Below are positions 29,971 through 54,820 of a stretch of 64,000 nt of DNA, in pieces (the first letter of the stretch is position 1; each line of letters opens with the position of its first letter). The DNA is from a candidate division FCPU426 bacterium (GTDB lineage Bacteria > Oederibacteriota > JAAXVQ01 > JAUVAV01): NCBI GenBank assembly GCA_040756875.1, contig JBFLYH010000001.1, positions 64,001 to 128,000 on the forward strand, in the 5' to 3' direction. Both the position numbers and the translations under genes were made by a program. Under the pieces are notes generated by a model, which searched no databases, had not been told where the DNA came from, and saw only the letters and a program-made list of their open reading frames with translations.

Positions 29971-30149
29971 GGCCGTCTCCTGGAACCATCGTGTGCTTCA
30001 AGCCGTCGCTGCTAGTCTCGACACGGCCCGGGCGGGACTTAACCGCATACGCGCCGGTATCGTGCCGCTGTTCATCATTAGTCACTCGGGATTCACAAGC
30101 TCCGCCGGCGGGGTCTAAATACCATACGGCGTGAAAGGCGGTGAGGGGC

Positions 30150-31019
30150 ATGACAGCCATCCGGGAAGTGGACGAAATCTTTCAAAGCCAGACCACCCGC
30201 GAAGGGGCGGGCGTGCGGCTCAAACGCGGCTTCGGTTTTCACCAGCTGCCTCGCTTTGATCCCTTTCTCATGCTGGACGATTTCCGCTCGGACCGTCGCG
30301 CGGACTATCAGGCCGGGTTTCCCTGGCACCCGCACCGGGGCATGGAAACCATCACCTACGTGCTGGACGGCCAGGTGAACCACGAAGACAGCCTGGGCAA
30401 TACCGGCAGCATTGCGGCCGGGGATGTGCAGTGGATGACCGCCGGCAGCGGCATATTGCACCAGGAAATGCCCCGGGGAACGGACGCGGGACGCCTGCAG
30501 GGGTTTCAGTTGTGGTTGAATTTGCCGGCCAGGTACAAAATGATGGATCCCCGCTATCAGAATATTTCGCGGGATTCGATCCCGACCGTGGAACTGCACA
30601 ACCAGGCCCGGGCGCGGGTTATTGCCGGACAACTGGGCGCGGTGAGGGGGCCCGTGGAGGACGACACCTCGGACCCGGAATATTTGGACGTGCAGGTGCC
30701 GGCAGCTGCGACGTTCGAGTATCCGGTCACACGGGGGCGCACGGCCTTTGCCTACGTTCTCGGCGGCACGGCGGCCTTTGCCGGCCGGCCTGGATTCGTG
30801 GGAGACGGGAACGTGGTCCTGTTCAAGGATGGAGACCTCGTCCGGTTGCGCAGCGGGGACCAGGGAGCGCATCTGCTGCTGGTTTCCGGCAAGCCGCTGG
30901 GCGAACCCATCTCCTGGTACGGACCCATGGTCATGAACACGCACGAAGAGATCGAAACAGCCCTGGATGAGCTGGACAAGGGCACGTTCATCAAGCAGCG
31001 CGGCCGCGCCGCCCGTTAG
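30150..31019 (+). CDS. Pirin family protein
   Basis: DPFLMLD, FPWHPHRGMETITY, WMTAGSGILHQE, GPMVMN. Confidence 0.95.
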   Translation: MTAIREVDEIFQSQTTREGAGVRLKRGFGFHQLPRFDPFLMLDDFRSDRRADYQAGFPWHPHRGMETITYVLDGQVNHEDSLGNTGSIAAGDVQWMTAGSGILHQEMPRGTDAGRLQGFQLWLNLPARYKMMDPRYQNISRDSIPTVELHNQARARVIAGQLGAVRGPVEDDTSDPEYLDVQVPAAATFEYPVTRGRTAFAYVLGGTAAFAGRPGFVGDGNVVLFKDGDLVRLRSGDQGAHLLLVSGKPLGEPISWYGPMVMNTHEEIETALDELDKGTFIKQRGRAAR

Positions 31020-31058
31020 GCGGGGAGCCAAGGGGAGTGCGCCCGGGGAGGACCGGAG

Positions 31059-37263: not shown

Positions 37264-37854
37264 ATGTCCCTGATATCCCCCGAACTGATCGAAATGTTCA
37301 ACCAGGCGGCGAAGCTGGCGCGCGAGGAGCATTATGAGGAATCGCTGGCCCTGTGGGAGCAGATCCTGGACCCCAAAAAGCGGCCGGGCCATCAGGCCTC
37401 GGACGAGCGCATGGTGGTGACCGGCGATTTCCTCGGCCAGTCCATGCTGAGGAAAGCCTGGGTCCTGATGGACCTGGAACGGTACCCTGAGGCCAGGGAG
37501 GTCTTCGCGAGCGACCTCATGGAAGCCTGCCTGGGGCAGTTCGAACTGGACATACTCTACGAATATTTTTTCAGCTTTGGCAACACCCTGGGCTCGCTGG
37601 GGGACATCGAGGGCATGGACGACAAGCTTTCGCGGGCCATGAGCATTGCCGCGGAGGAGCTCGGTGACTATCAGAAGCTCCGCCAGTGCTGGCTCAACCT
37701 GCTCGACCATGCGGCCAGGAACCGGGACTGGAAATACATTCTCCGGGAAAGCGATGTCTGCCTCAAACTCGCCCAAAACTACAAAGACGAGGAATTGGCC
37801 GAGACCGCCGAAAACGCGCGCGAACAGGCCCGGAACGGCCTGAAAGGCCGGTGA
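37264..37854 (+). CDS. TPR-like helical protein
   Basis: KAWVLMDLERYPEA and FGNTLGSLG TPR-like helices; RBS aaggag. Confidence 0.65.
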   Translation: MSLISPELIEMFNQAAKLAREEHYEESLALWEQILDPKKRPGHQASDERMVVTGDFLGQSMLRKAWVLMDLERYPEAREVFASDLMEACLGQFELDILYEYFFSFGNTLGSLGDIEGMDDKLSRAMSIAAEELGDYQKLRQCWLNLLDHAARNRDWKYILRESDVCLKLAQNYKDEELAETAENAREQARNGLKGR

Positions 37855-41774: not shown

Positions 41775-42278
41775 TCATAGCTTGGCGATGATCTCCTGCA
41801 GGCGCACGACAAATTCCCGGTATCCTTCCTTGACCCGCTCCAGCATCCGGATGACCGTTTGGCGCTCGGATTCCTGTTTCAGGAAATCGTCGTCTTTCGC
41901 GTACAACTGCTGGACGCCGGCCATGATAATTTGCGCCGTGCGGATTTCGTGGAAGATCCTCACCAGCTGGTCGAGGAGTTCGCGCTTCAAAAAAGCATAG
42001 CTGGTCATGTTCCGGTAGAAGGTAATGTCAGGCTCGATCTCGGTTTTAAAAAACAAATCACTTTTGCGGCCTTCCTTGAGGCCCTGGACGCATTCCTCGA
42101 TTTCGCCGATTTTATCCTGCCGGTATTTCAGCATTTCGCCCAATTCGGCCTTTAACGCCACACGCAGGGCTAGGTTTTTTTTGGATTTTTCGATCAACTG
42201 GGGGAAGAAGGAAAAGCAAAACCCCAACACCGCGCCAAAAGCGATTTGCACGAAGGAGATGTCATACCAGGGTTTCAT
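41775..42278 (-). CDS. Hypothetical protein with N-terminal TM anchor
   Basis: 167 aa ORF, N-terminal hydrophobic helix then helical domain. Confidence 0.65.
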   Translation of the reverse strand: MKPWYDISFVQIAFGAVLGFCFSFFPQLIEKSKKNLALRVALKAELGEMLKYRQDKIGEIEECVQGLKEGRKSDLFFKTEIEPDITFYRNMTSYAFLKRELLDQLVRIFHEIRTAQIIMAGVQQLYAKDDDFLKQESERQTVIRMLERVKEGYREFVVRLQEIIAKL

Positions 42279-42458
42279 GGCGGTCTGTCCTTTTGCGGAC
42301 GCGCTATTAATTCAAAAGCAATGGATTAATGATAGATAACTTTACGCCGGGTGACAAGGGCTTTCCAGGATGGAAGGCAAGCCGGGCATCATCTGACAGT
42401 TCTTTTATACCCGCTCGTCATCATCGTGCATCCTGGGATGCGGACAGTACTTGAAGCC

Positions 42459-42980
42459 TCAGAACCAGGTTTGCCGCTTATAAACCCGGTACGCCTCCCC
42501 GAACTGGGCTTCCAGCGCGGTTTCCTCCAGGCGCTGCCAGAAAAGAATGCCAGGAACGCACACCAGTCCGAGGGCCAGGCTGATAGCCGCGCCGTTGAAT
42601 ACCACCCAGCCGGCGATCCACAGGATGAAGCCCGCATACATGGGATGGCGGAACTTGGAGTACAAACCCGTAGTGACCAAATGATCGATGTTTTCCACTC
42701 CCCGCAATTGAATTAACCCTCCCACTGCCAGGACCAATGCCACTGCCACCAGAACCAGCCCGGCCCGGCTCAGGACCGCGGGGAGGGCGATGCGCCAGGG
42801 GTCCAAAGGGCAAAAGAAAGGCCAGCTCATCAGGAAGACGCCCATGGCCGTGGCGATCGCGGCAAAGACCACCGGATTCTTGGTGTCCACCCTGCCGGCT
42901 TGCTTGAGGAGTTCATAGCCCGTGCGGGCGAGAAAAGCGAGCAGGCACAGGCCGGCGATGATCAGATAGGTTTTATCCAT
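42459..42980 (-). CDS. Isoprenylcysteine carboxylmethyltransferase/PEMT family membrane protein
   Basis: LVTTGLYSKFRHPMY...EETAL...FGEAY. Confidence 0.88.
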   Translation of the reverse strand: MDKTYLIIAGLCLLAFLARTGYELLKQAGRVDTKNPVVFAAIATAMGVFLMSWPFFCPLDPWRIALPAVLSRAGLVLVAVALVLAVGGLIQLRGVENIDHLVTTGLYSKFRHPMYAGFILWIAGWVVFNGAAISLALGLVCVPGILFWQRLEETALEAQFGEAYRVYKRQTWF

Positions 42981-42987
42981 GGCAGGC

Positions 42988-43392
42988 CTATCTCCAGACC
43001 GCGAGCAGGGCGCCGACCAGACCCATGGCCACAAAATGGCAGCCAACTCGGATCCCGAACAGTTTGAACGGGATCTTTTCCCAGATCAGCTCTCCGACCT
43101 CCAAGGGCACTACGAAGCCGACCCAAGCCAGGATTCCGATCGCGATCCCGCCGGCCACGGTCGTGGCTTGCGCGAGGGCAATAAACACCGCCAGTACCAA
43201 AGCCACGAGCAAATGGCCGAGGATGCCTGCAGGCATCCAGCGGACCGCGGGCTTGGAATCGGACTTGGTGAGCTCGGCCCAGGCTTTGCCGAAAAGCAGG
43301 GGCGAGAACCAGAGCAGGTTCGAAACCATGTGGATCAAGCCCGCGACCAGAACTGCCGGATAATTCAATTGCGACCAGACAGACGCCAGCAT
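42988..43392 (-). CDS. DUF1761 membrane protein
   Basis: NYPAVLVA...LWFSPLLFGKAW. Confidence 0.8.
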   Translation of the reverse strand: MLASVWSQLNYPAVLVAGLIHMVSNLLWFSPLLFGKAWAELTKSDSKPAVRWMPAGILGHLLVALVLAVFIALAQATTVAGGIAIGILAWVGFVVPLEVGELIWEKIPFKLFGIRVGCHFVAMGLVGALLAVWR

Positions 43393-43542
43393 GAGGCCTC
43401 CTTGAGGTGGAGAAATGATGTTATAGGCGAAATTATACCTTGTGCGGCCCTGGGCAGGTGTTTTTTGTGTAATAAATGCGTGCATTCCCAGTCAAATAAT
43501 TATAGAATCCGCTTTATATAACCCCCCCAGGAGGAACCCTCT

Positions 43543-44067
43543 TTGCCTCCTACTGCAATCAAGACCATCCGCGATCTGATCTTCTGGGAATACGCCAAAC
43601 TCATATCCCAATCCGCAGGCAAAGGCCGGGACAACTTTGCCTTTGTGATGTTTAAATTCAAGGAACTGCAAAGCAGGGCGATTTCCTGGTCCACGATCCT
43701 CAGGGAAGACCTCAAAACCTCCCGCGATGAATGCGCGTACTGCGGGGCCAAGTCCAACCTCAGCCACGACCACATCGTTCCCAAGCGGGAATGCCACTAC
43801 GACGAGATCCACAACATCGTGGCTGCTTGCAAGTCCTGCAATTCCTCCAAGGGGGACAAGGATTTGATCGAGTGGTATGGCCTTGACCGCCGCGCCGAAA
43901 TCCCCAGGATCGTAATGGGGAAATATCTGAAAATGCTGTACATCTGCCACGAATGCCGGGGGACATTGGCGAAGCGGGATATCAATAAGGATGGGAAGGT
44001 CGATTTGCTGGATTTGGGGTGGATATTCAAGGAGACGTGCGGGGAGAAGGGGAGTGCGCTTAAGTAA
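43543..44067 (+). CDS. HNH endonuclease
   Basis: CAYCG...DHIVP...NIVAACKSCNSSKG. Confidence 0.9.
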   Translation: MPPTAIKTIRDLIFWEYAKLISQSAGKGRDNFAFVMFKFKELQSRAISWSTILREDLKTSRDECAYCGAKSNLSHDHIVPKRECHYDEIHNIVAACKSCNSSKGDKDLIEWYGLDRRAEIPRIVMGKYLKMLYICHECRGTLAKRDINKDGKVDLLDLGWIFKETCGEKGSALK

Positions 44068-44142
44068 ATAAGTTAACTCCTGGAGTTCCCCTGATCATAG
44101 AATTCATAAAAAACGTAAGGGCGGAAAATTAGGAGGTCTAGA

Positions 44143-45015
44143 GTGAGTGAACGGCTTGAGGAAATATTTAAACTGCCAAAAGACACGCCGCCAAAAGCCC
44201 TTTACCACTACACTTCGCGAGAGGGTCTGCTGGGTATTTTAAAGGAACGGGCTATTTGGGCGACAGATATCATGTGTCTTAACGATTCGATGGAATTTAC
44301 TTATGCGGTCGAAATTGCGCGACCACTTGCACTAGAAATGATTAATAATTGTACGGATGAACAAGAGAAAAATGGATACAGAATGATAAGTAGTTTACTT
44401 GAAGAGAGGAATATAGGGCAATTCCGATCATACATTGTTTCCTTTTCAGAAGAAGGAGATTTATTAAGCCAATGGAGGGGCTATACCCGCGCAGGTGATG
44501 GTTATGCTATTGAATTTAACCCGGATATACTTGAACAACTGATTAGAACTAATATTTTGGAGAACAAGGAGTTCTATCTTGCAAAATGCAGGTATGTATT
44601 AAATGAACAGAAGAAAATTGTGGAAGAAGTACTCGAAAATGCACGAAAGATATCCAAAACTGAGGTAGAAGCAGGAATTCCAATTTATGCGGCTATCGTT
44701 AAAAATTTTCTTATTCCTTTTTTATTCATTGCACCTCTTATCAAACACCCGACCTTTAAGCAAGAACAAGAATGGCGGCTTATTGCCTTCTTAGCTGATG
44801 CGACTAACATACTTCAGTTTAAACCGGGCAAGTCAATGCTGATTCCATACATCTCCTTTAAGTTTGATGAAACGGGGTTGCCTTTTAATAAAATAATACT
44901 TGGCCCAAATCCTCATCCGGAACTTAATCGACGAGTAGTTTTGGAACTTTTAGACAAATATGGTGCTACTAATGCAGTATGCACAAGTTCTTCAATACCA
45001 TATAGGGATTGGTAA
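44143..45015 (+). CDS. DUF2971 domain protein
   Basis: LYHYTS, LNDSME, SFSEEGDLLSQWRGY, KHPTFKQEQEWR, IILGP, SSIPYR; AT-rich. Confidence 0.85.
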   Translation: MSERLEEIFKLPKDTPPKALYHYTSREGLLGILKERAIWATDIMCLNDSMEFTYAVEIARPLALEMINNCTDEQEKNGYRMISSLLEERNIGQFRSYIVSFSEEGDLLSQWRGYTRAGDGYAIEFNPDILEQLIRTNILENKEFYLAKCRYVLNEQKKIVEEVLENARKISKTEVEAGIPIYAAIVKNFLIPFLFIAPLIKHPTFKQEQEWRLIAFLADATNILQFKPGKSMLIPYISFKFDETGLPFNKIILGPNPHPELNRRVVLELLDKYGATNAVCTSSSIPYRDW

Positions 45016-45183
45016 TAGAAACAAAATGGGATTAATAAATTTAAAGATGCCGTAATGAATGGGGACGGAGTGGCCCCGTTCACACGGGAGGAAGAATGAC
45101 TGATGAACCGGGACGTTGTTTAAATGTCAAAATGACCCGCGGCCTCCCCAATTGTGCAAGAGGTGCTTGCACAAATTGCTTAG

Positions 45184-45405
45184 TGTAAATGGGGACGTTG
45201 TTTAAATGTCAAAATGTTTACAGTGCTGATATTCACCTGACACCTCCGCCTTTTGCTGGTTGAGCTGCCGGGCTGCTTTCTGGTGTCCCTTTTCCCGCAG
45301 ATGTTTTAACGCCCAATGCCAGTCGCCTGTCCTTCACGACTTATCTCATAAAACCTTTCTCAACTGATGAAAAACGCATTGAAATCCCTCGCCACCGGTC
45401 TAATG
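45184..45405 (+). repeat. 222 bp direct repeat copy 1 (leader of truncated DUF1016 gene)
   Basis: Matches 46789-47010 with 2 mismatches by eye. Confidence 0.92.
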
Positions 45406-45432
45406 GATCAAGAATGTGCGAGGGGGAATATT

Positions 45433-46014
45433 ATGCCCGGCGAAAAAAGAAAGACGCACTTCCAAACCCAGCTCCATAGCCTGCCGTATGATTATGCGCA
45501 AATTCTTGCTGAGATAAAACACAGAATCCATAGTGAACGGTTGCGTGTTGCACGGGCGGCGAATTCTGCCCTGGTTATGCTGTATTGGGACATTGGCAGG
45601 TTAATACTAGGCCGCCAGAAACACGAAGGCTGGGGAACACGTGTCATAGACCGGCTTTCGGCGGATTTAAGGACGTCTTTCCCGGAAATGAATGGTTTGT
45701 CCCCGCGAAATCTTAAATATATGCGTGCGTTTGCCTCGGCATGGCCGAATAGATCAATTGTGCAAGAAGTGCTTGCACAAATTACTTGGTATCATAATCT
45801 TGCTTTGTTGGAAAAATTGAAACCATCAGAAGAAAGGCTGTGGTATGCCCGAAAAAGCCTTGATAACGGGTGGAGTCACAATATACTTGTAATTCAAATC
45901 GAAAGCGGCGCACGCGAACGGAGCGGAAAGGCGCTGCATAATTTCAAAACTACCCTGCCTGCGGAGGATTCGGATCTGGCGGGCCAGGTATTTAAGGACC
46001 CATATGGGTTTTGA
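45433..46014 (+). pseudogene. Truncated DUF1016/YhcG-like gene (N-terminal domain only)
   Basis: Paralog of 47038-48093 ending right after FKDPY; lacks the PDDEXK C-terminal domain. Confidence 0.8.
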
Positions 46015-46221
46015 TCGGGGCCGGAGTTAACTTGTTAACATAGCCAAGAATGGTGCCAGCCGCCATTTCTCTGTTTACTGTGCGGGAAATACTTGCGCAA
46101 ATGACTTGGTACCATGGAGATGCGGGACACTGTGTCCCTGAGATTCATTCAATCAAAACAGCAGGCGTGCTATTATGGGGAATATATTAATTATATTTAG
46201 GCACGGGCTTTATTAAATAAA

Positions 46222-46692
46222 ATGGAGATGAGAATGGAAATACAAATAGAGCCATTGTCTTCCGGAGAACAAGCTCCGCTGGATTTACTGAAGCTTGCTG
46301 ATCCATCTGAAAAAATGGTCGCTTTCTATTTAAGCCAGGGAGAGTGCTTTGTTGCTAAAGAAAGTAATGCTGTGGTGGGAGTTATTATTAGTATGAAAAC
46401 GAAGCCGGATACTTTTGAAATAATGGCCATAGCTGTAAAAACAGAGATGCAGAATAAGGGTATTGGTAAAAGGTTGATTGCTTTTGTACGGGAAAAGGTG
46501 AAAAAAACGGGCGCGAAATATTTGGAAATTGGGACAGGCAATCCCGGTGTGCAACAAATGCTGCTTTATCAAAAATGTGGTTTTAGAATAGTTGGCGTGG
46601 ATTTGGATTATTTCAGAAGAAATCACGATGAAAAAATAATGGTAAATGGCATTGAATGCCGGGATATGATTCGCATGCAAATGGAATTATAA
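46222..46692 (+). CDS. GNAT N-acetyltransferase
   Basis: LADPSE, QNKGIGKRLI, IGTGN, LYQKCGFRI, NGIECRDMI; AT-rich. Confidence 0.9.
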   Translation: MEMRMEIQIEPLSSGEQAPLDLLKLADPSEKMVAFYLSQGECFVAKESNAVVGVIISMKTKPDTFEIMAIAVKTEMQNKGIGKRLIAFVREKVKKTGAKYLEIGTGNPGVQQMLLYQKCGFRIVGVDLDYFRRNHDEKIMVNGIECRDMIRMQMEL

Positions 46693-46788
46693 AGACTAGG
46701 GACGTTTTTTAAATGTCAAAATGTCCTGCGCTCCAATAATCACCCCCTTTACTCCTCCCTGAATACTTCTGCCCTAAATGTTAATAAT

Positions 46789-47010
46789 TGTAAATGGGGA
46801 CGTTGTTTAAATGTCAAAATGTTTACAGTGCTGATATTCACATGACACCTCCGCCTTTTGCTGGTTGAGCTGCCGGGCTGCTTTCTGGTGTCCCTTTTCC
46901 CGCAGATGTTTTAACGCCCAATGCCAGTCGCCTGTCCTTCACGACTTATCTCATAAAACCTTTCTCAACTGATGAAAAACGCATTGAAATCCCTCGCCGC
47001 CGGTCTAATG
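46789..47010 (+). repeat. 222 bp direct repeat copy 2 (leader of full DUF1016 gene)
   Basis: Matches 45184-45405. Confidence 0.92.
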
Positions 47011-47037
47011 AATTAAAACTGTGCGGAAGGGAATTAT

Positions 47038-48093
47038 ATGCCCGGTGAAAAAGTGAAGGCGCGCTTCCATACCCAGCTCAATGGCCTGCCGTATGATTAT
47101 GCGCAAATTCTTGCTGAGATAAAACACAGAATCCAAAGCGAACGGTTGCGTGTTGTGCGGGCGGCGAATTCTGCCCTGGTCATGCTGTATTGGGACATTG
47201 GCCGCCTTATACTTGGTCGGCAGAAACATGAAGGCTGGGGAACACGCGTGATAGACCGGCTTTCGGAGGACTTGAAGGCGGTTTTTCCGGAAATGAGGGG
47301 TTTGTCCCCGAGAAACCTCAAGTATATGCGGGCTTTTGCCTTGGCCTGGTCTAATAAGGCAATTGTGCAGCAGCTTGCTGCACAATTGCCCTGGTATCAT
47401 AACTGCATGCTTTTGGAAAAAATTAATGCGATCCCCCTGCGTCTATGGTACGCCAAGATGGCGCTCACCCAAGGATGGAGCAGGAATATACTTTCACTAC
47501 AGATCGAAAGCGGTGCATACGAACGGAGCGGAAAAGCGCTGCATAATTTTAAAACTACGCTGCCGGCGGAGGATTCGGACCTGGCGAACCAAGTATTTAA
47601 AGACCCTTATTTATTTGACTTTCTCGGCATGGCTGAGCTTAAAAGAGAAAAGCAGGTCGAACAAGCTTTGGTGGATCATATTCAGAAGTTTTTGCTCGAA
47701 TTGGGCGCGGGGTTTGCTTTTGTCGGGCGGCAGGTTAGATTGGACGTTGGCGGCCAGGATTTCATCATTGACCTGCTTTTCTACCATCTTGCGCTCAGGT
47801 GTTATATCGTTATAGAACTCAAAGCCGTGCCATTTGAACCGGCGTTTGTTGGCCAAATGAACCTATACCTATCCGCTGTTGATGATCGTATGCGGCACGC
47901 GGAGGATAAGCCGACGATCGGGTTGCTGCTGTGCAAAGCAAAAAATCGCTTGATCGTGGAATATGCCCTCCGCGATTTGAAAAGGCCGATCGGTGTGGCG
48001 CGATGGGAAACGAAGATCGTCAGGTCGCTACCTAAAAAGTTTGCTGGGATACTGCCTTCGATCGAGCAGATCGAGGAGGAGTTGAAACGTTAA
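47038..48093 (+). CDS. PDDEXK nuclease domain protein, DUF1016/YhcG family
   Basis: LYWDIG, SPRNLKYMR, KDPYLFDFL, FLLELGAGFAFVGRQ, IDLLFYH, VIELK, GQMNLY, TIGLLLC. Confidence 0.95.
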   Translation: MPGEKVKARFHTQLNGLPYDYAQILAEIKHRIQSERLRVVRAANSALVMLYWDIGRLILGRQKHEGWGTRVIDRLSEDLKAVFPEMRGLSPRNLKYMRAFALAWSNKAIVQQLAAQLPWYHNCMLLEKINAIPLRLWYAKMALTQGWSRNILSLQIESGAYERSGKALHNFKTTLPAEDSDLANQVFKDPYLFDFLGMAELKREKQVEQALVDHIQKFLLELGAGFAFVGRQVRLDVGGQDFIIDLLFYHLALRCYIVIELKAVPFEPAFVGQMNLYLSAVDDRMRHAEDKPTIGLLLCKAKNRLIVEYALRDLKRPIGVARWETKIVRSLPKKFAGILPSIEQIEEELKR

Positions 48094-48284
48094 AGCCTTC
48101 GACAGTAGGTTTATACCAACCCGATTCCCCTGCCTCTCCCATACCCCGTATGCTAAAATGCCTGGGGACGTAGTTTGAATGTCCGGATGTCCAGCAGTCT
48201 CTCCTGCTCTTTGTGGACTAAAAGATGTCGTATTATTTTAAGATTAAAAGGTTAAAACAGCCGATGAGCATTATAAATATACCA

Positions 48285-49112
48285 ATGAAACATCCCTTGG
48301 TATCTATTTTAGTTTTCCTAATGCTGATCTGTTTAGTCTCAATTACCCCTTCCTCTGCCCGCGACTGGCCTGAGTCCCGCACTGCGACTATCTACTCCCA
48401 AGGCGCCCGCATTCCTTATCTCCCATCCGGCGGCACGGAAAGCAAACCATCCACCTGCCAAGGCGCTTCCACGCAATTGCGGATCACCCAGGTTCTGGCA
48501 AAAATGCCCCGGCACGACGTGGACCTGGGCCGGACTACGCTGACCTTGCTTTCTTTGGATGGCAAGAAGGAGCTGCTTAAAGAGACCTTTACCGAGGTTT
48601 GGGAATGCCTGGGGTACAATCCAACCGCCAAGCGTTATGTCCTGATCACCAAGAATGAACACGGCACCAAAGTCACTTTGCGCGGCTTGGTCTATTTGGA
48701 AGAGAACCCGGCGAGGTTCAAGGATTCGGTGTTTGGAGAAAAACAGTTTGAAGCTGCGGCGTCCTTGCCCGGGCCGGATGGGAACTATCTGGCGCTGATC
48801 GGCGCTCCGGAAGGGGAAGACACCTACAAGCTGTATGTCCTGAATCTGGTCGCGGACAAACTGCAACTCCTGGGCGATGCGCCTGGCCCTCCGCCTCTGA
48901 CCAAGGAAGATTTGGAATGGCCGGAAGCCTTGGACATGATGGCAGCCTGGGAAGCGCCGGAACGGCACTACACTGAGCTGGAACCAGGCATCTGGTCCTT
49001 CACGAACCCGTCCACCCTGCAAGTCAGCTATGGCAAAGACACCTATAAAGCCCGCAATAAAAAGCGCAGCATAAAAACCTGGGATTTAAAAAGCCTGTTC
49101 AAACCAATTTAG
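48285..49112 (+). CDS. Secreted hypothetical protein
   Basis: Signal peptide from MKHPLV; stop codon overlaps the repeat copy at 49112. Confidence 0.7.
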   Translation: MKHPLVSILVFLMLICLVSITPSSARDWPESRTATIYSQGARIPYLPSGGTESKPSTCQGASTQLRITQVLAKMPRHDVDLGRTTLTLLSLDGKKELLKETFTEVWECLGYNPTAKRYVLITKNEHGTKVTLRGLVYLEENPARFKDSVFGEKQFEAAASLPGPDGNYLALIGAPEGEDTYKLYVLNLVADKLQLLGDAPGPPPLTKEDLEWPEALDMMAAWEAPERHYTELEPGIWSFTNPSTLQVSYGKDTYKARNKKRSIKTWDLKSLFKPI

Positions 49113-49370
49113 GGACGTTGTTTGAATGTCCGGATGTCCCGCGGCCTCGCCTTTTCTCCTCAAACTTGAACCCGTAAATGTTCGATTTCCTTTAAGCATG
49201 GGCGCTTCATCCCGGACCCTTTGCGAAAAAGCCGGGAAGGGGAAAAGAACCAAGGGGATTGAGGGTTGACACTGAGAGCGTAATCTTTTATTAATAGTGA
49301 AAACGGGCTGTCCTCGATATAACCTCCGAATCAAACCGGCTGGCCGTAATCAAAGCGCGCGAGGTATAGG

Positions 49371-50474
49371 ATGAGAAAAAATATCTGGGTCATGGGCATG
49401 ATCATGTGGTTGGCCCTTCCTGCCATGGGGCAGGCGGTCACCTTCGGGGAAACCGGCACTGGCACAGCCGGCAGCACGGTGAACGGTTATCTGATGCTGT
49501 GCCAATTCACCTGCCCGGCGGATGGAACCATAAACCGGATAAACTTGAGAGTTGATTATACGAACGGCAGCGGCCGGGTGGCCATTTACTCCAATGCCGG
49601 GGCCGATCAACCCGGCGTGCTGCTGGCTGAAAGCGCTTCCCAGGGCGTCAGCACCGGCTGGAACACTTTTACCGTCGCTTCTACGGCCGTGAGCAATGGA
49701 GCAACCTATTGGCTGGCCTTTCAATTGAATTCCAGCATTACCGGCGTCCGCTATTACACGGATTCAAACCTGAATAAACAGCGGTATTACAATTACGCCT
49801 ATGCCGCTTTTCCGGCCAACTTGTCCGGCAGCCCGCCCAACGGCTCCCTGGCGGCCCGGACCTGCATCTATGCCTTTGACGTCGAAACGCCGACGCCGAC
49901 GCTCACAGCTTCGGCGACCGCGACGCTCTCCGCCACCATTTCCCCCACGGCGACCATCACTCCCACTGTTACTGACACGCCCACCCTGACCTCCACGGCC
50001 ACGCCCTCGGATTCGCCGACCCGCACCGTCACCACGACCACAACGCCCACAGGCACGATCACCCCGACCGCGACCATCACCTTGACCTCCACCATCAGCC
50101 CGACTTTTACGATCAGCCCGACCGCAACCGTTTCCCCGATGGTCACGGCAACCGTGTTGCCCGCCTCCAGCCTGACCTCCACCCCGAACCTCCTGGCGGA
50201 GGTATTGTTAAACGGGAAGCAGGCGATGGTTTTCCCCAACCCCGCCCGGGATGAGGTCCGGTTCCTGGTGCATCTGGACCGGGCGGCAACCCTGCGGCTG
50301 GACCTGTTCAATTCGAACGGTGAAAGGATCGCGGGCCTGGACGCCGCTTTGCCGGCCGGCCGGGGGCAGGTCATTCAATGGGATTGCCGCGATGTGGCGC
50401 CCGGCGTATACCACGTCCGCCTGCTGAAGGACGGGCAGGCCTGGGAAAAGCTAAAAGTGGCGGTCGTAAGGTAG
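49371..50474 (+). CDS. Secreted protein with beta-sandwich domain, Thr-Pro linker and T9SS type-A-like CTD
   Basis: Signal peptide; RVAIYS...GWN...YWLAF; TPT linker; VFPNP...APGVYHV...KVAVVR. Confidence 0.8.
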   Translation: MRKNIWVMGMIMWLALPAMGQAVTFGETGTGTAGSTVNGYLMLCQFTCPADGTINRINLRVDYTNGSGRVAIYSNAGADQPGVLLAESASQGVSTGWNTFTVASTAVSNGATYWLAFQLNSSITGVRYYTDSNLNKQRYYNYAYAAFPANLSGSPPNGSLAARTCIYAFDVETPTPTLTASATATLSATISPTATITPTVTDTPTLTSTATPSDSPTRTVTTTTTPTGTITPTATITLTSTISPTFTISPTATVSPMVTATVLPASSLTSTPNLLAEVLLNGKQAMVFPNPARDEVRFLVHLDRAATLRLDLFNSNGERIAGLDAALPAGRGQVIQWDCRDVAPGVYHVRLLKDGQAWEKLKVAVVR

Positions 50475-50674
50475 AGAAACAGGGTGGTGAATAGAGACGT
50501 AGTTTCTGAATAGGGACCTGGTTTGAATGTCCGGATGTCCCGCGGTCTTGCCTTCTCCCCTCGTGTCTAAATCGGGAACTCCGGTAGTACAAAAAATCGG
50601 GAGACACCAAGATTGAGAACAGAGTCTGTTTGCTGGTTTAGAAGAAGCGCGTGGAAATGAGCGGCGCGGGGGGA

Positions 50675-51280
50675 CTAGCTCCAGGTGAATTCGAGGACGC
50701 AATGCGATTTGCCCTGCCGGATGCATTGCAATTGCCGGGCCCGGACGCTCTCGGCGCCGGAGTATTGCAGCGCCGTGGAGACCCAGCCTTCGCAACCCAC
50801 GCAGACGGATTGTTTCCAGACCTGCGTATCGTGCATGTGATATACCACCCGTTTGTCTGCGACCTCGGCCACGCTCATGCTTCCGGGCGTGAAATAGCGT
50901 TTGAAAATAGCCGGCACCCGTTTGGCGATGAACAGGGGAGTGCCGATCTTTAAAAAAATCGTCAGGACCGTGCTGAGATCGTGAAAAGCCGAAAAAGCGG
51001 CGAGTTCCCGAAAAAGTCGGGGATCCCCGTCATTTAAGGAAGCCAGGTAGTCGTAGGTTTGAAGAAAGAGGCGGCCCGGCAAACGGGAGACAGACAGCAC
51101 CTTGTCCGAGGACCAGTACTCGGCGTCCTGCGGGGGCAGTTGGGCCAAAAAACGTTTATACGCCTCCTGGCCCAGGCTTTCTTGAAACCAATGCCTGCCC
51201 CCCAGGAGCAGGGTGGCGCGAAAAAGCGGGTCTGCCATAGGCGGCGGCTTTCCCTTCTCTGCAGTATCTGCCTTATTCAT
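50675..51280 (-). CDS. V4R/H-NOX-like (DUF2378-like) protein, paralog 3
   Basis: FRAT, VLSVSRLP, IFKRYFTPG, QCIRQGKSHCVLEFTW. Confidence 0.65.
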   Translation of the reverse strand: MNKADTAEKGKPPPMADPLFRATLLLGGRHWFQESLGQEAYKRFLAQLPPQDAEYWSSDKVLSVSRLPGRLFLQTYDYLASLNDGDPRLFRELAAFSAFHDLSTVLTIFLKIGTPLFIAKRVPAIFKRYFTPGSMSVAEVADKRVVYHMHDTQVWKQSVCVGCEGWVSTALQYSGAESVRARQLQCIRQGKSHCVLEFTWS

Positions 51281-51387
51281 AGTAACGTACGCGCGGATGA
51301 AACTTAAACAGATAATCTTTGTTAATTATTTACGTCTCCCTTAATCCGCCTGCCCCTAAAATACACAAACCTAAATCAAATGCAGTC

Positions 51388-51873
51388 TCACCGGAGCTTA
51401 AGCAGCTTTACGATATCTCCTTCAATCTGGAGCGGCCGGACAGCCGGGGCATAGCGCTTGAACGGCTTGCCGTCCCGGCTGATCAGGAACTTGGTGAAGT
51501 TCCACTTGATCCTGCCTCCGAAGGGGCCTCCGGGCAGGGCTTTTTTCAGGTAGGCGAACACTGGGTGGGTCTTCTTGCCGTTCACGTCAATCAATCCGCT
51601 CAACTGGAAAGTCACCCCGAAATTCACTTTGCAGACCTGCACGACGGTTTTATTGGTCTCGGGTTCCTGCCCGAGAAACTGGTTGCAGGGAAACCCGAGC
51701 ACGACCAGGCCGTGGTCCTTATATTTTTGGTGCAACTGCTCAAGTTCGACGAACTGGGGGGCCAGGCCGCATTTCGTGGCTGTATTGACCACCAGCACCA
51801 CCTTGCCCTTGTACTCGCTCAGGTTTAAAGTCCTGCCGATCGTATCGCGGAAAGATAAATCGTAGAATTCCAT
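51388..51873 (-). CDS. Glutathione peroxidase family (Cys type)
   Basis: VNTATKCGLAPQ, LGFPCNQF, IKWNFTKFL. Confidence 0.95.
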   Translation of the reverse strand: MEFYDLSFRDTIGRTLNLSEYKGKVVLVVNTATKCGLAPQFVELEQLHQKYKDHGLVVLGFPCNQFLGQEPETNKTVVQVCKVNFGVTFQLSGLIDVNGKKTHPVFAYLKKALPGGPFGGRIKWNFTKFLISRDGKPFKRYAPAVRPLQIEGDIVKLLKLR

Positions 51874-52240
51874 GGTTAACACCCCGGTTGGTGATGGTTG
51901 TATGCAATAGCCTGTAATACTTGGACACCCATTATATGCCTTGGCCGTGATTTAAACCGCGTTATTCCGCCGGAAGGGTGCCGGCGTTGATAAACCGGGA
52001 CGTTATTTATGCGTCCGCATGACCCGTGTTTCGCCTGCTGAAAATTAGCCGCAATTAAAGAGGAGGGGCATGGATAAGTAAATAAAAAAATGAGATACTC
52101 TGATGGAAATGCTTATATAATTATCAACGTTCCCAAGTGCTCACTAACGCAGGTATGGGTGGGCAGCCAGAACTGGCGCAAGCCGAAAGCGGCAGATCAG
52201 CGGCTTGAGGCGCTGCGATTACGCTCCGGGAGAAGAGGGC

Positions 52241-52786
52241 ATGCCTAAGAACAAAGGAACCAACTATTACTTCACCACCACCAAACTGCTCGAAAAAAGC
52301 GGCCCCAGTGCCCGGCAAAAATTCCTGGAGCAGCTGACCCCGGCGGAGCGGGCTTTTCACGAGAAGGCCCTGGAAATCAGCTGGCTGGATGCTGCCATGG
52401 TTTCCGCCAATCTGGCCAAGGCGGCCAGGATCATCTTCCCGGGCAGGGACCATCCGCTGCAGGAATGCGGCCGCCTCGAGGCGCTGGACCACCTGACCGG
52501 CATGTACCGCATCTTCTTGAGATTCGTTTCGGTCGAGATGGTGATGAAACAGGCCGCGAAAATATGGCGGCAGTACCACGACGCCGGCGCTGCCTATGTC
52601 AAGAAAACGGGTGATAAGCGCCTGATTCTCTTCGTGGAAGCATACCCCGAGCTGACCCCGGAGTTGCGGGACATCGTGGCCGGGTACTGCCAAGGGACCA
52701 TTGAACTGACCGGCGCGCGCGAAGTCGTCATTGCCATCAATGACAAAAATCCGGCGCAGTGGCAGTTCGAAGTGAGCTGGAAGTAG
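52241..52786 (+). CDS. V4R/H-NOX-like (DUF2378-like) protein, paralog 4
   Basis: NKGT, LEISWL, GMYRIFL, IWRQYHDAG, GTIELTGA. Confidence 0.7.
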   Translation: MPKNKGTNYYFTTTKLLEKSGPSARQKFLEQLTPAERAFHEKALEISWLDAAMVSANLAKAARIIFPGRDHPLQECGRLEALDHLTGMYRIFLRFVSVEMVMKQAAKIWRQYHDAGAAYVKKTGDKRLILFVEAYPELTPELRDIVAGYCQGTIELTGAREVVIAINDKNPAQWQFEVSWK

Positions 52787-52871
52787 CGCGGCGCGAGCCC
52801 GCCAGGGAGCGGAAAATCCGCTCGTTTTATGTATAGATAGGAAAACGCCACACCTAGCTTGCGAGGAACGC

Positions 52872-53285
52872 ATGGCTGCGCCCACCACCATTACAGCCCC
52901 TCTCATCGCCCCCTGCGGAATGAACTGCGCCATCTGCCTGGGGCATTTGCGCGAGAAACGCCATTGCCCGGGCTGCACTCTCCTCAACCAAACCGAAGAT
53001 GTGTATGTGCGTAAATGCGTCCTCCGCCTCTGCCAAAAGCGGGGCAAGCGGAAACACTGTTTTGCCTGCGGGGATTATCCCTGCCGCCGGCTCAAACAGC
53101 TGGACAAGCGCTACCGCCTGCGCTACGGCATGAGCATGCTCGAAAACCTGGCGTTCATCCGGGAACAGGGCATCCGGGCGTTCGTGCGGCAGGAGCGGGT
53201 CCGCTGGCAGTGCCGCAGCTGCGGAAACCTAGTGTGCGTGCACCGGGAAAACTGCCTGTCCTGCGGCGCCGCGCGGCGACCTTAG
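52872..53285 (+). CDS. DUF3795 Cys-rich protein
   Basis: IAPCGMNCAIC...CPGC...CFACGDYPC...CRSCG. Confidence 0.85.
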   Translation: MAAPTTITAPLIAPCGMNCAICLGHLREKRHCPGCTLLNQTEDVYVRKCVLRLCQKRGKRKHCFACGDYPCRRLKQLDKRYRLRYGMSMLENLAFIREQGIRAFVRQERVRWQCRSCGNLVCVHRENCLSCGAARRP

Positions 53286-53293
53286 GAGGAGTC

Positions 53294-53698
53294 GTGGGAA
53301 ACGTCATTTATCACATCCTCACGCGCAGCGACCTGAAGGAATCAGTCAAAAACAACTCCTACCAGCCCGCCCGGTATGAAAGCGACGGCTTTATCCACTG
53401 CGCCGCAGACCCCGCGACCTCCCTGCAGGTGCTGGAAGATTATTTTGCGGGCCTGGCCGAAAGCCGCGAAATATTGATTTTGGAAATTGACGTAACCAGA
53501 GTGAAAGCCGAAGTGAAATTTGAAGCGCCGGCCCCGGTCGCGGGCCTTGGCCCGGGCCATGCGGACAAGCACGTTTTGTTCCCGCATATTTACGGGCTCC
53601 TGAACCTGGACGCGGTTGTCGGCATCGGGAAAGCCGCAAGAACCGGCGATGCCTTTGTCTGGCCGGAAACCTTCGAGGATCCGAACCAATACTTCTAA
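53294..53698 (+). CDS. DUF952 family protein
   Basis: IYHIL...DGFIHC...FPHIYGLLNLDAV; GTG start behind aggagg. Confidence 0.85.
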   Translation: MGNVIYHILTRSDLKESVKNNSYQPARYESDGFIHCAADPATSLQVLEDYFAGLAESREILILEIDVTRVKAEVKFEAPAPVAGLGPGHADKHVLFPHIYGLLNLDAVVGIGKAARTGDAFVWPETFEDPNQYF

Positions 53699-53827
53699 TC
53701 AACCCCGCCAAGCGGTGTTGCCGTCCTGTGGAAATTCCTTCGAAAAGACCGATTGCGCATATAGGGGTCAGCCGGAAACAGCCGATACTGGAAGGGAAGG
53801 GATAACTCCGCCGGGGGGCGCCTGCCC

Positions 53828-54820
53828 ATGGCCGGAAAAACCGAAGATTATTTCGTCTATTACGTGGAAGTGTCGGGGCTTTGCAATTACCGCTGCCCCT
53901 CTTGCCCGAACGGCAACTATCCCCGGCCCCAGGCCAAGGGCTACATGCCTTTGGACCTTTACGGGGCGATTTTGGAAAAAATCGCCAAAACCTCGCCGGG
54001 CCGCTCCACCATCCTCTACCTTTTCAACTGGGGCGAACCGACCCTGCACCCCGAACTGCCGCGGATGATCGAAATGGCGCGGGCGCTCGGCCTGGCGCCG
54101 CATTTATCCAGCAACCTGGGGGCCCCCAAAAACCTGAGGGAAATCGTCCGGGCGCGGCCGGCTTCGTTCCGCATATCCCTTTCCGGTTATTTTCAGGAAA
54201 CGTACGCCCAAACCCACCAGCCCGGGGACATTGAACAGGTCAAGGCCAATGTCCGGGCCCTCCACTCGCACCTGGACGAGCAGAGGGGCGGTTTCCCGGT
54301 GGAATTTTTCTACCATAAATACCGGCACAACCTGGGCCGGGATTTGCTGAAAATGAAAGAGTGGGCCGCCGAGCTCCGTTTTGCCCTGACCGCGCTGTGG
54401 GCCCAATACATGCCCGTGGAAAAACTGCTGGCGTACTACGACGGAAATCCCGATCCCAAGGACCGTCCGCTCCTGGAACTGCTGGCCATTACTCCAGAGG
54501 AGTTCCGGCAGGTCTCCCTGGCCCTGCGGCCCGGGCATCCGGACTGCGACCTGCGGGCCCGCCAAATGTGCATTGATTTCGACGGCGCGGTGTCCCTGTG
54601 CTGCGCGTCCTATGACCGGAGCAATTTTCTGGCCGGCGGGTACCTGGATTGCTCCCACGAGGAGCTGCAGCAGCAGAAATACCGGCATCCCCTGTGCGCC
54701 CGCTGCCTGCGCGAGGGGTGCGACGTGACCTATGTCTACGGCGGCTTGAAGGAGTTGGACGCTTTGGTCGAACGCAAATGGGGGTCAGAGACGGCTTGCC
54801 CCCATCCCTCCGCCTGCTGA
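53828..54820 (+). CDS. Radical SAM protein with SPASM/twitch-like C-terminus
   Basis: CNYRCPSC, FNWGEPTLH, DGAVSLCC, CARC. Confidence 0.9.
   Translation: MAGKTEDYFVYYVEVSGLCNYRCPSCPNGNYPRPQAKGYMPLDLYGAILEKIAKTSPGRSTILYLFNWGEPTLHPELPRMIEMARALGLAPHLSSNLGAPKNLREIVRARPASFRISLSGYFQETYAQTHQPGDIEQVKANVRALHSHLDEQRGGFPVEFFYHKYRHNLGRDLLKMKEWAAELRFALTALWAQYMPVEKLLAYYDGNPDPKDRPLLELLAITPEEFRQVSLALRPGHPDCDLRARQMCIDFDGAVSLCCASYDRSNFLAGGYLDCSHEELQQQKYRHPLCARCLREGCDVTYVYGGLKELDALVERKWGSETACPHPSAC

Follow-up and report, generated by a model that had tools for sequence, protein, structure and literature searches.

We examined a run of short repeats in a 64-kb stretch of DNA (hereafter, the window) from a candidate division FCPU426 bacterium. 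The window corresponds to positions 64001 to 128000 of contig C1 in genome G000, which comprises 3.22 Mb in 7 contigs and has a GC content of 60%. Comparisons within this genome and with other genomes firmly identify the repeat, at the level of sequence, as a family of solo terminal inverted repeats (TIRs) belonging to a TIRYT transposase; that is, the repeats are TIRtron ends. The TIRtron in this genome is a unit of approximately 1.1 kb whose gene product, the TIRYT, is a RAYT-like Y1 HUH transposase that probably ends in a DnaA_C-like helix-turn-helix (HTH) domain. We consider it likely that the solo TIRs have done more than persist, with their head ends acting as sites of breakage and joining for an enzyme supplied in trans and accessory genes becoming strung between them. 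Assembly of the array by gene capture, which a preliminary description of the window had suggested, remains a plausible proposal.

We searched the window with a 28-nt pattern allowing up to three mismatches and obtained seven matches, at 45110, 45192, 46699, 46797, 48165, 49112, and 50513, all on the plus strand, compared to none in 100 shuffles of the window. Repeat finding recovered an eighth copy at 51997 (repeat family D3), a head-only fragment lies on the plus strand at approximately 50496 to 50507, and the pattern search found no copy of this family (family 1) in the remainder of the 64 kb. These results agree with the preliminary description, which had reported eight same-strand copies, one partial copy, and none elsewhere in the window. 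Its account of the surroundings also held: some copies directly follow stop codons (the copy at 46699 starts 6 nt past the stop codon of a GNAT acetyltransferase gene, and the copy at 49112 shares one base with the TAG of the gene at 48225 to 49112), two subtypes are split by position (left-hand copies have AAATGTCA/AAATGxxx, right-hand copies GAATGTCC/GGATGTCC), every large open reading frame (ORF) between 43.5 and 50.5 kb is on the plus strand, and base composition varies along the locus, with a GC fraction from 0.37 to 0.66. Two copies of a second repeat family (family 2), at 44052 to 44090 and 46017 to 46045, had been missed. The repeats of the locus are as follows.

44052 to 44090, minus strand: family-2 TIR copy with a degenerate head, from a loose family-2 scan (genome position C1:108080, minus strand); its two 8-mers overlap the stop codon of an HNH gene, and its head points to a DUF2971 gene
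45104 to 45137, plus strand: family-1 TIR copy 1, with outer motif, GGGACG, spacer, and two 8-mers (pattern search, profile)
45186 to 45219, plus strand: family-1 TIR copy 2, which opens a duplicated unit of TIR plus YhcG-type gene (pattern search, repeat family D1)
46017 to 46045, plus strand: family-2 TIR copy (loose family-2 scan)
46693 to 46726, plus strand: family-1 TIR copy 3, 6 nt past the GNAT stop codon (pattern search)
46791 to 46824, plus strand: family-1 TIR copy 4, which opens the second unit of TIR plus YhcG gene (pattern search, repeat finder)
48159 to 48192, plus strand: family-1 TIR copy 5, of subtype GAATGTCC GGATGTCC (pattern search)
49106 to 49139, plus strand: family-1 TIR copy 6, with a one-base overlap with the TAG of the gene at 48225 to 49112 (pattern search)
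50496 to 50540, plus strand: head fragment (approximately 50496 to 50507) followed by family-1 TIR copy 7 (50513 to 50540; pattern search, sequence read)
51991 to 52024, plus strand: family-1 TIR copy 8, the most diverged, with units ATGCGTCC GCATGACC (repeat family D3, profile)

Judged by information content, the conserved block of family 1 is approximately 33 to 34 nt long and comprises a weak outer motif, GGGACG, TTGTTT, and two 8-mers. A copy starts with an outer T-A-rich motif (T.AAtg or TGAACC), continues with the head GGGACG and 6 nt of spacer, and closes with a tandem pair of 8-mers. In the best copy, the one overlapping the 3' end of the TIRYT gene described below, the 8-mers read AAATGTCA AAATGTCA and are identical at 8/8 positions. 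The two 8-mers agree at six or more of eight positions in 14 of the 27 copies found in the genome, and their first letters are the same in 22 of the 27. Most copies carry CGTTG as a tag, and a conserved GTAG is absent.

The preliminary description had noted inverted ends and an inner pairing in the best copies and had pointed to strand-specific hairpins as the sites on which Y1 transposases act. The pairing is indeed present in some copies, but it does not make them fold better than shuffled sequences. We folded 11 sequences as single-stranded DNA, including window copies, reverse strands, and the repeats of relatives, and compared each with shuffles. For three window copies, the folding energy was -3.4 to -4.2 kcal/mol, compared to -2.4 to -3.4 kcal/mol for shuffles (z scores of -0.5 to -0.9), and neither the reverse strands nor the homologous repeats of five relatives exceed shuffles (all z scores between -0.9 and +0.8). 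The best fold among the relatives' repeats is 0 to -0.5 kcal/mol, with the repeats of two relatives giving no fold at all. None of the 11 sequences folds above its shuffles, and we rejected the hairpin reading of the repeat. A search of positions 42000 to 54000 against Rfam gave no match at E values up to 0.1.

The genome contains only two Y1_Tnp genes, and one of them is bounded by the repeat. This gene, TIRYT-1 (336 amino acids; G000:C1:1033649-1034659), lies outside the window and is flanked by inverted family-1 copies at C1:1033667 (plus strand) and C1:1034731 (minus strand), one of which overlaps the 3' end of the gene while the other is approximately 45 nt upstream of its ATG. Having inverted copies on both sides of one of two Y1_Tnp genes supports the earlier proposal of a Y1 HUH transposase as the partner acting in trans. 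TIRYT-1 matches the Pfam model Y1_Tnp above the cut-off (8.4e-11). It has an HUH motif (HVH, position 60) and Tyr119 within RYIHLNPVRAG, both invariant across an alignment of nine sequences and both aligning to E. coli TnpA-REP (4er8). The C-terminal domain is probably a DnaA_C-like HTH; residues 347 to 403 of the DnaA model TIGR00362 match at 2e-04. The ends of the TIRYT-1 gene read GGGGACGT, in which 6 of 8 positions fit GGGGWSAS, the motif given for most TIRYT TIRs in the published sections available to us; the homologue L117 (GGGGACAC) is among those that fit it fully.

The second Y1_Tnp gene, TIRYT-2 (G000:C1:1039783-1040793; L025:10784-11794), is approximately 5 kb away from TIRYT-1 and 42% identical to it. 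It is flanked by an inverted repeat of its own, with the head GGGGCYGGAG followed by TCAACTTA twice. This family-2 repeat has about 10 copies in the genome, two of them in the window, and solo family-2 copies adjoin family-1 copies in the window array, in a second array on contig C2, and in an island on contig C3. At G000:C1:826500-828850 (L029), family-2 copies are knotted with a third head-plus-repeat family (GGGACGYAATTAAAATAAC) in both orientations; because there is no third Y1_Tnp gene in the genome, this third family looks orphaned. We also considered an IS200/IS605 identity for the transposases, which would imply a short TnpA and subterminal hairpins at both ends on one strand, and rejected it: the TIR ends are inverted and unstructured, and the NCBIfam model transpos_IS200 stays below its cut-off for TIRYT-2 (16.2 compared to 55) and is not among the matches of TIRYT-1.

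The association between gene and repeat extends to other genomes. Among relatives, the homologous gene is flanked by inverted 13- to 27-nt repeats of its own sequence at 8 of 11 loci. We scanned a public genome collection with tblastn and obtained at least 599 stretches, at least 593 of which encode a relative. Of 80 loci taken from this collection, 64 were testable, having 120 nt or more to either side. In 51 of these 64 loci of other phyla, the gene lay between inverted repeats of 16 nt or longer. In 45 loci, the repeats were at least 20 nt long and had a GGGA head, located in most cases approximately 50 to 70 nt upstream of the start of the tblastn match. Tandem 7-mers agreeing at six or more of seven positions were found in 30 of these 45 loci, mostly with a period of 8 (mean best agreement 5.89, compared to 4.47 in shuffled sequences), and 13 of the 45 had extra copies of the repeat in their flanks. 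The upstream TIRs of many loci (L056 to L134) carry a TTGACA-like hexamer directly after the second 8-mer, approximately 30 nt before the transposase start codon. Because the hexamer abuts the second 8-mer, binding to the repeat could repress the transposase's own promoter.

These features match the published TIRtrons. The available sections of Di Nocera et al. (2013, PMC3733652) describe TIRYT genes as RAYT-like genes between long inverted repeats, rather than repetitive extragenic palindromic (REP) hairpins, and report "moderately abundant families of TIRs," many of them "in dimers or clusters." The corresponding sections of Quentin et al. (2018, PMC6006769) describe a subclass, 2.1.2, with a Bac_DnaA_C-like C terminus, and list Bac_DnaA_C, HTH_23, or HTH_28 as the options for its C-terminal HTH. 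In the same way, the elements studied here encode a Y1 HUH protein that is RAYT-like and has a probable DnaA_C-like HTH at its C terminus, carry the gene between nonpalindromic inverted repeats starting GGGGAC, and have moderately abundant solo copies that occur singly, in dimers, or in clusters. Five features go beyond the description in those sections: the tandem pair of 8-mers within the TIR, the unrelated genes that separate the copies of head-to-tail runs, a tie to low-GC islands of defense and toxin-antitoxin (TA) genes, the head-side polarity, and the sharing of arrays by two TIR families.

We built an nhmmer profile from 26 copies and used it to scan the genome with a cut-off of E below 1e-4. 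The scan detected 27 family-1 copies and two partial copies on both strands. They form 8 clusters, compared to 24.9 expected at random (minimum of 19 in 5,000 simulations), and all 8 clusters fall within the lowest 8% of 3-kb GC windows. The clustering in variable loci and the link to a Y1_Tnp gene that the preliminary description had proposed to test were found, and across the genome the copies use both strands. The low-GC windows and the neighboring genes listed below likewise bear out the view of the repeat loci as variable accessory DNA. A second array, at C2:196-200 kb, has five copies (and a partial sixth) on the minus strand with minus-strand genes in between. The arrays are also polar: of 9 same-orientation runs, 8 have a lower GC content in the 2 kb past the head end than in the 2 kb past the tail end. 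Crude ORF calls place the 3' end of a same-strand gene on the head side of 19 of the 27 copies; a fixed relation to gene ends did not survive a count by cluster (approximately 5 to 6 vs 3 to 4), and the array of a relative (G001) has ORFs on both strands.

The genes of the locus are listed here together with a gene fragment.

43543 to 44067, plus strand: HNH endonuclease gene (HNH_5, 9e-09), with weak PDC-M01B/PtuB-like matches
44143 to 45015, plus strand: DUF2971 gene (Pfam), between two TIR heads and at the minimum GC of the locus (0.37 to 0.39)
45149 to 45184, plus strand: fragment (36 nt) of a YhcG-type gene, stranded between TIR copies 1 and 2, with 92% identity to 45755 to 45790 (repeat family D7)
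45367 to 46014, plus strand: truncated YhcG-type gene (YhcG'), with the N-terminal DUF1016_N domain only (Pfam)
46222 to 46692, plus strand: GNAT acetyltransferase gene (Pfam)
47038 to 48093, plus strand: full YhcG PD-(D/E)XK nuclease gene (PADLOC candidate defense family PDC-S02, 1.6e-147)
48225 to 49112, plus strand: hypothetical protein with no family match in Pfam or in the defense-family search
49371 to 50474, plus strand: protein with host-like GC and a match to the type IX secretion system (T9SS) C-terminal sorting domain below the cut-off (23.2 bits compared to a Pfam cut-off of 27)
50675 to 51882, minus strand: two genes between TIR copies 7 and 8, encoding a 201-amino-acid protein of unknown family and a glutathione peroxidase (ORFs, Pfam)

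The homology of YhcG' to the full YhcG ends at 46005, and a family-2 head starts 11 nt on, at 46017. Two genes are truncated within a few bases of a head, YhcG' and a gene remnant in the relative G001 (below), and they point to events at the ends themselves. Of 6 comparisons between duplicated units, 5 show tail-side DNA that is shared from 3 to 8 nt ahead of the head onward, and in-register similarity was detected for 7 tail-side pairs (after 2 from a neighboring copy were dropped), compared to 1 genuine head-side pair. Within the gene at 49371 to 50474, we also observed 18-nt periodic repeats (49894 to 50124; families D2 and D6), which probably encode a Thr/Pro-rich linker.

Two genomes of relatives provided further examples of arrays. 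G001, from the same genus, is strongly diverged, with syntenic tblastn matches for only two window ORFs (30093 to 31031 and 37264 to 37854). Two colinear anchors link it to the locus, at window positions 43463 to 43517 (55 nt) and 51788 to 51873 (86 nt), both at 80% identity. The anchors are 8.3 kb apart in the window vs 2.0 kb in G001, where the segment between them holds three TIR copies, and the 86-nt remnant in G001, which matches the start of the window's glutathione peroxidase gene, abuts a TIR head. Within 4 kb, G001 also carries 10 copies from its own TIR family, all on one strand. They adjoin low-GC genes for Mrr and GmrSD, and between them lie a Phd/ParE pair and fragments of an rve gene and of a T9SS tail, with ORFs on both strands. 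G003 has a run of 3 TIR copies and two units of TIR plus T9SS gene. A TIR-adjacent GNAT gene in G003 was considered as a cassette shared with the window and set aside; the two GNATs are 31% identical and therefore too distant for such an argument.

Based on these sequence features, we propose how the repeats might work. The HTH domain of the TIRYT probably binds the two 8-mers, and nicking probably occurs at the head. Bound to duplex DNA, the HTH would place the HUH/Tyr domain so that it can nick at the head, much as an HUH Rep protein acts at an origin made of iterons and a nick site. With the enzyme supplied in trans, the head ends of solo copies would become breakage and joining sites, producing insertions, adjacent deletions, and duplications of units, and over time accessory genes would be strung between same-strand copies. 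At the HUH Rep origins of geminiviruses and adeno-associated virus, short tandem direct repeats stand beside a conserved presumed nick site, and the DNA-binding module is on the same protein as the HUH domain. The systems differ in that the locus studied here is no replicon and that binding and nicking by the TIRYT are predicted.

The main competitor of the capture reading is that the copies are passive relics. Under this explanation, which we regard as possible but on balance unlikely, solo copies are inert leftovers or insertions resembling miniature inverted-repeat transposable elements, derived from the TIRtron and kept where they do no harm, namely in accessory DNA that is AT-rich and was acquired recently; the runs and the duplicated units would be products of ordinary recombination between copies, homologous or slipped, and the repeat would have played no part in the arrival of genes. 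Several observations favor it and weigh against breakage and joining at the heads. All pairs of similar flanks, and with them all duplications, are local, and the shared tail-side flanks that we compared gave no case of a unit transposed to a distant site. Tandem duplications that arise by unequal crossing-over between direct copies would have their start precisely at the repeat edge; because this process predicts the same pattern, duplications that begin at the head are not proof of a mobile unit. The copy number is low (27), and many copies have diverged from the TIRtron's own ends, including the right-hand subtype GAATGTCC GGATGTCC and copy 8, which differ from the resident TIRtron ends and for which the genome contains no cognate gene. 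When counted by cluster, copies show no link to gene ends, and their orientation has no link to the replication strand, with clusters on both the leading and the lagging side as judged by GC skew. Solo copies are scarce in both genomes from other phyla in which we counted them: G041 has 2, and G042 about 7. Two model scores bear on the proposed enzyme activity rather than on passive retention: TIRYT-1 matches Bac_DnaA_C at 4.8e-06 and 26.9 bits, below the Pfam cut-off of 31.5, and the NCBIfam model REP_Tyr_transpos at 1.8e-22 and 79.8 bits, just under the cut-off of 80. In the literature searched, the term TIRYT was found in PMC3733652 and PMC6006769, and no biochemical data on any TIRYT were found.

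On the other side, passive retention has difficulty with the arrays themselves. Eight copies on one strand within 7 kb of the window, five to six in the C2 array, and 10 in G001 would be hard to obtain via independent insertions. The units of the window carry unrelated genes and therefore are not simple tandem copies. Passive relics also leave the low-GC polarity on the head side (8 of 9 runs), the truncation of genes within a few bases of heads, and the gathering of two different TIR families in the same arrays to be explained, all of which favor activity at the heads.

Activity of this kind could go further. TIRYTs and their solo end repeats could together form a gene-cassette platform, doing the job of an integron by means of an HUH single-strand nuclease; we hold this to be unlikely, and a little more so than passive retention. 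On such a platform, the segment from one head to the next same-strand head would be released or copied and would reenter at another head, head-to-tail arrays of defense, TA, and other accessory genes would grow at a few hot spots, and the newest DNA, lowest in GC, would lie at the head end. A literature search for HUH-based cassette systems listed no relevant report. The nearest analogy is to IS91/ISCR elements and Helitrons, in which an HUH nuclease with one active end could mobilize the DNA on one side and so give same-strand ends with cargo between them. The likeness is one of analogy only, given that those enzymes are not Y1_Tnp proteins and that Helitrons also carry a helicase; an ori/ter pair and a rolling-circle product belong to those systems, whereas the present one is known from its sequence.

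A regulatory role is improbable. The repeats could be operators or promoters bound by the TIRYT HTH, or terminators, co-opted for neighboring accessory genes. The TTGACA-like hexamer after the upstream repeat of many TIRtrons points in this direction, with binding that could autoregulate the gene, and so does the same-strand gene start on the tail side of 17 of the 27 copies. However, the distance from a copy to the next start varies from 33 to 312 nt in the window, and between 43000 and 52500 we counted 8 promoter-like matches vs 9.5 in shuffles and 11 terminator-like matches vs 12.2. A weak promoter-like match overlaps only one of the eight copies, and the repeat matches no Rfam family.

It is highly improbable that the repeats are ordinary REP/REPIN elements, that is, palindromic hairpins mobilized by a RAYT. 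The protein is RAYT-like, as the REP_Tyr_transpos match indicates, with a catalytic domain homologous to that of E. coli TnpA-REP (HUH plus Tyr in Y-I-x-x-N-P-V); its gene lies between inverted copies of its own repeat, as in a REPtron; and intergenic copies have spread in the genome. The literature nevertheless sets TIR-flanked genes apart as TIRYT, as far as the available sections of PMC3733652 go. REP elements are GTAG-tagged hairpins that number in the hundreds and often form inverted pairs, whereas the window repeats form no hairpin (z scores of -0.5 to -0.9 in the window and a best fold of 0 to -0.5 kcal/mol in relatives), have CGTTG in most copies instead of a conserved GTAG, number 27, and stand solo and head to tail.

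A classical integron, or a cluster of attC sites lacking an integrase (CALIN), with the repeats as unusual attC sites recombined by an integron integrase, is close to excluded. Like a sedentary chromosomal integron, the window and the C2 array have same-strand genes with a species-specific repeat behind each of them, and the content resembles that of cassettes (GNAT and nuclease genes in the window, TA genes in other clusters) and is rich in TA, GNAT, and defense genes. But attC sites are imperfect palindromes of 55 to 141 nt with R''/R' cores (RYYYAAC/GTTRRRY), whereas the repeat is approximately 33 to 34 nt long, has no fold above shuffles, shows no RYYYAAC/GTTRRRY pair when the copies are read by eye (neither a motif scan nor IntegronFinder was run), and flanks Y1 transposase genes across phyla. 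The enzyme class is HUH Y1 rather than tyrosine recombinase, and no attI or common promoter was seen. The genome is rated 100% complete and encodes only two PF00589 proteins, both of Xer type: one is XerD (341 bits, above the cut-off), and the other is XerC-like (326 bits compared to a XerC cut-off of 335, above the tyrosine-recombinase subfamily cut-off). Both score 125 to 136 on the integron-integrase model, compared to a cut-off of 265. The earlier view that the repeat is not attC is accordingly upheld. Xer/dif sites, on which XerC/D act, are 28 nt long, and their two inverted 11-nt arms are separated by a spacer of 6 nt; modules of this type were rejected by reading only, since the arms of the repeat are asymmetric and it travels with Y1 transposase genes across phyla.

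TIRYTs are very widespread, with relatives in Elusimicrobia, Desulfobacterota, Omnitrophota, Gammaproteobacteria, Nitrospirae, and others (at least 593 stretches), and the locus offers a concrete, testable substrate: its head is defined, the pair of 8-mers is known, and arrays that carry cargo head to tail occur in nature. Should the enzyme indeed cut and join DNA at these ends, they would represent a second, mechanistically unrelated route to the cassette-like assembly of defense islands, and the TIRYT would provide a new programmable HUH module for DNA binding and nicking. Even otherwise, the arrays show the places in which this lineage keeps foreign DNA.

We looked for variants of the locus in metagenomes. 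In the groundwater metagenome contigs of one run, the only run found to contain the window and perhaps its source, one contig (depth 37.9) joins 44080 to 45106, with a shorter side of 25 nt that is below the limit of trust. This candidate joint would delete the DUF2971 gene between a family-2 head and a family-1 head. The junction was absent from the assembled loci searched, and we treat the joint as an unverified lead. Breaks of metagenome contigs at TIR copies reflect the repeats and not variants. A degenerate 25-mer had no match in collections of metagenome contigs or genome contigs (from which the window's own record was perhaps excluded), and no relative of the right-flank protein at 52205 to 52786 was found in metagenome contigs. 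These searches brought to light no excision circle, empty site, or strain polymorphism.

The genes that neighbor the clusters across the genome include TA genes (BrnT with a CopG-type antitoxin, HigB with an HTH protein, and Gp49/HI1420 pairs), Fic, a type I restriction-modification system adjoining a ThsA-like SIR2 protein and a GIY-YIG/RAMA protein, defense-associated reverse transcriptases (DRT) of type 3 (Drt3a, Drt3b; GC 0.28), RT_UG17 with a SLATT protein, FRG (PDC-S15), DUF4238, and YhcG (PDC-S02). The DRT type 3 pair (Drt3b, 2e-208; Drt3a, 8e-113) is located at G000:C3:159953-164284 (L023:7954-12285) together with a 278-amino-acid protein of unknown family, at GC 0.28 to 0.37, and the TIR copies that flank this locus have their heads inward. 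The RT_UG17 reverse transcriptase lies with a SLATT_5 effector at G000:C1:1274757-1276904 (L024:5758-7905), at GC 0.31, beside a tandem-duplicated unit of 472 nt in which one TIR copy is combined with a 78-amino-acid Ada_Zn_binding ORF. Contig C4 (20 kb) contains a near-identical direct repeat of approximately 2.6 kb, at about 6.4 to 9.1 kb and 17.7 to 20.4 kb; the contig as a whole is no concatemer. At G000:C2:398509-398722 (L022:12510-12723), directly upstream of a type I restriction R subunit gene, three tandem TIR copies are spaced 81 to 86 nt apart with no ORF between them, and each is followed by a short inverted repeat of the CCCTGCACCGCAGGG type.

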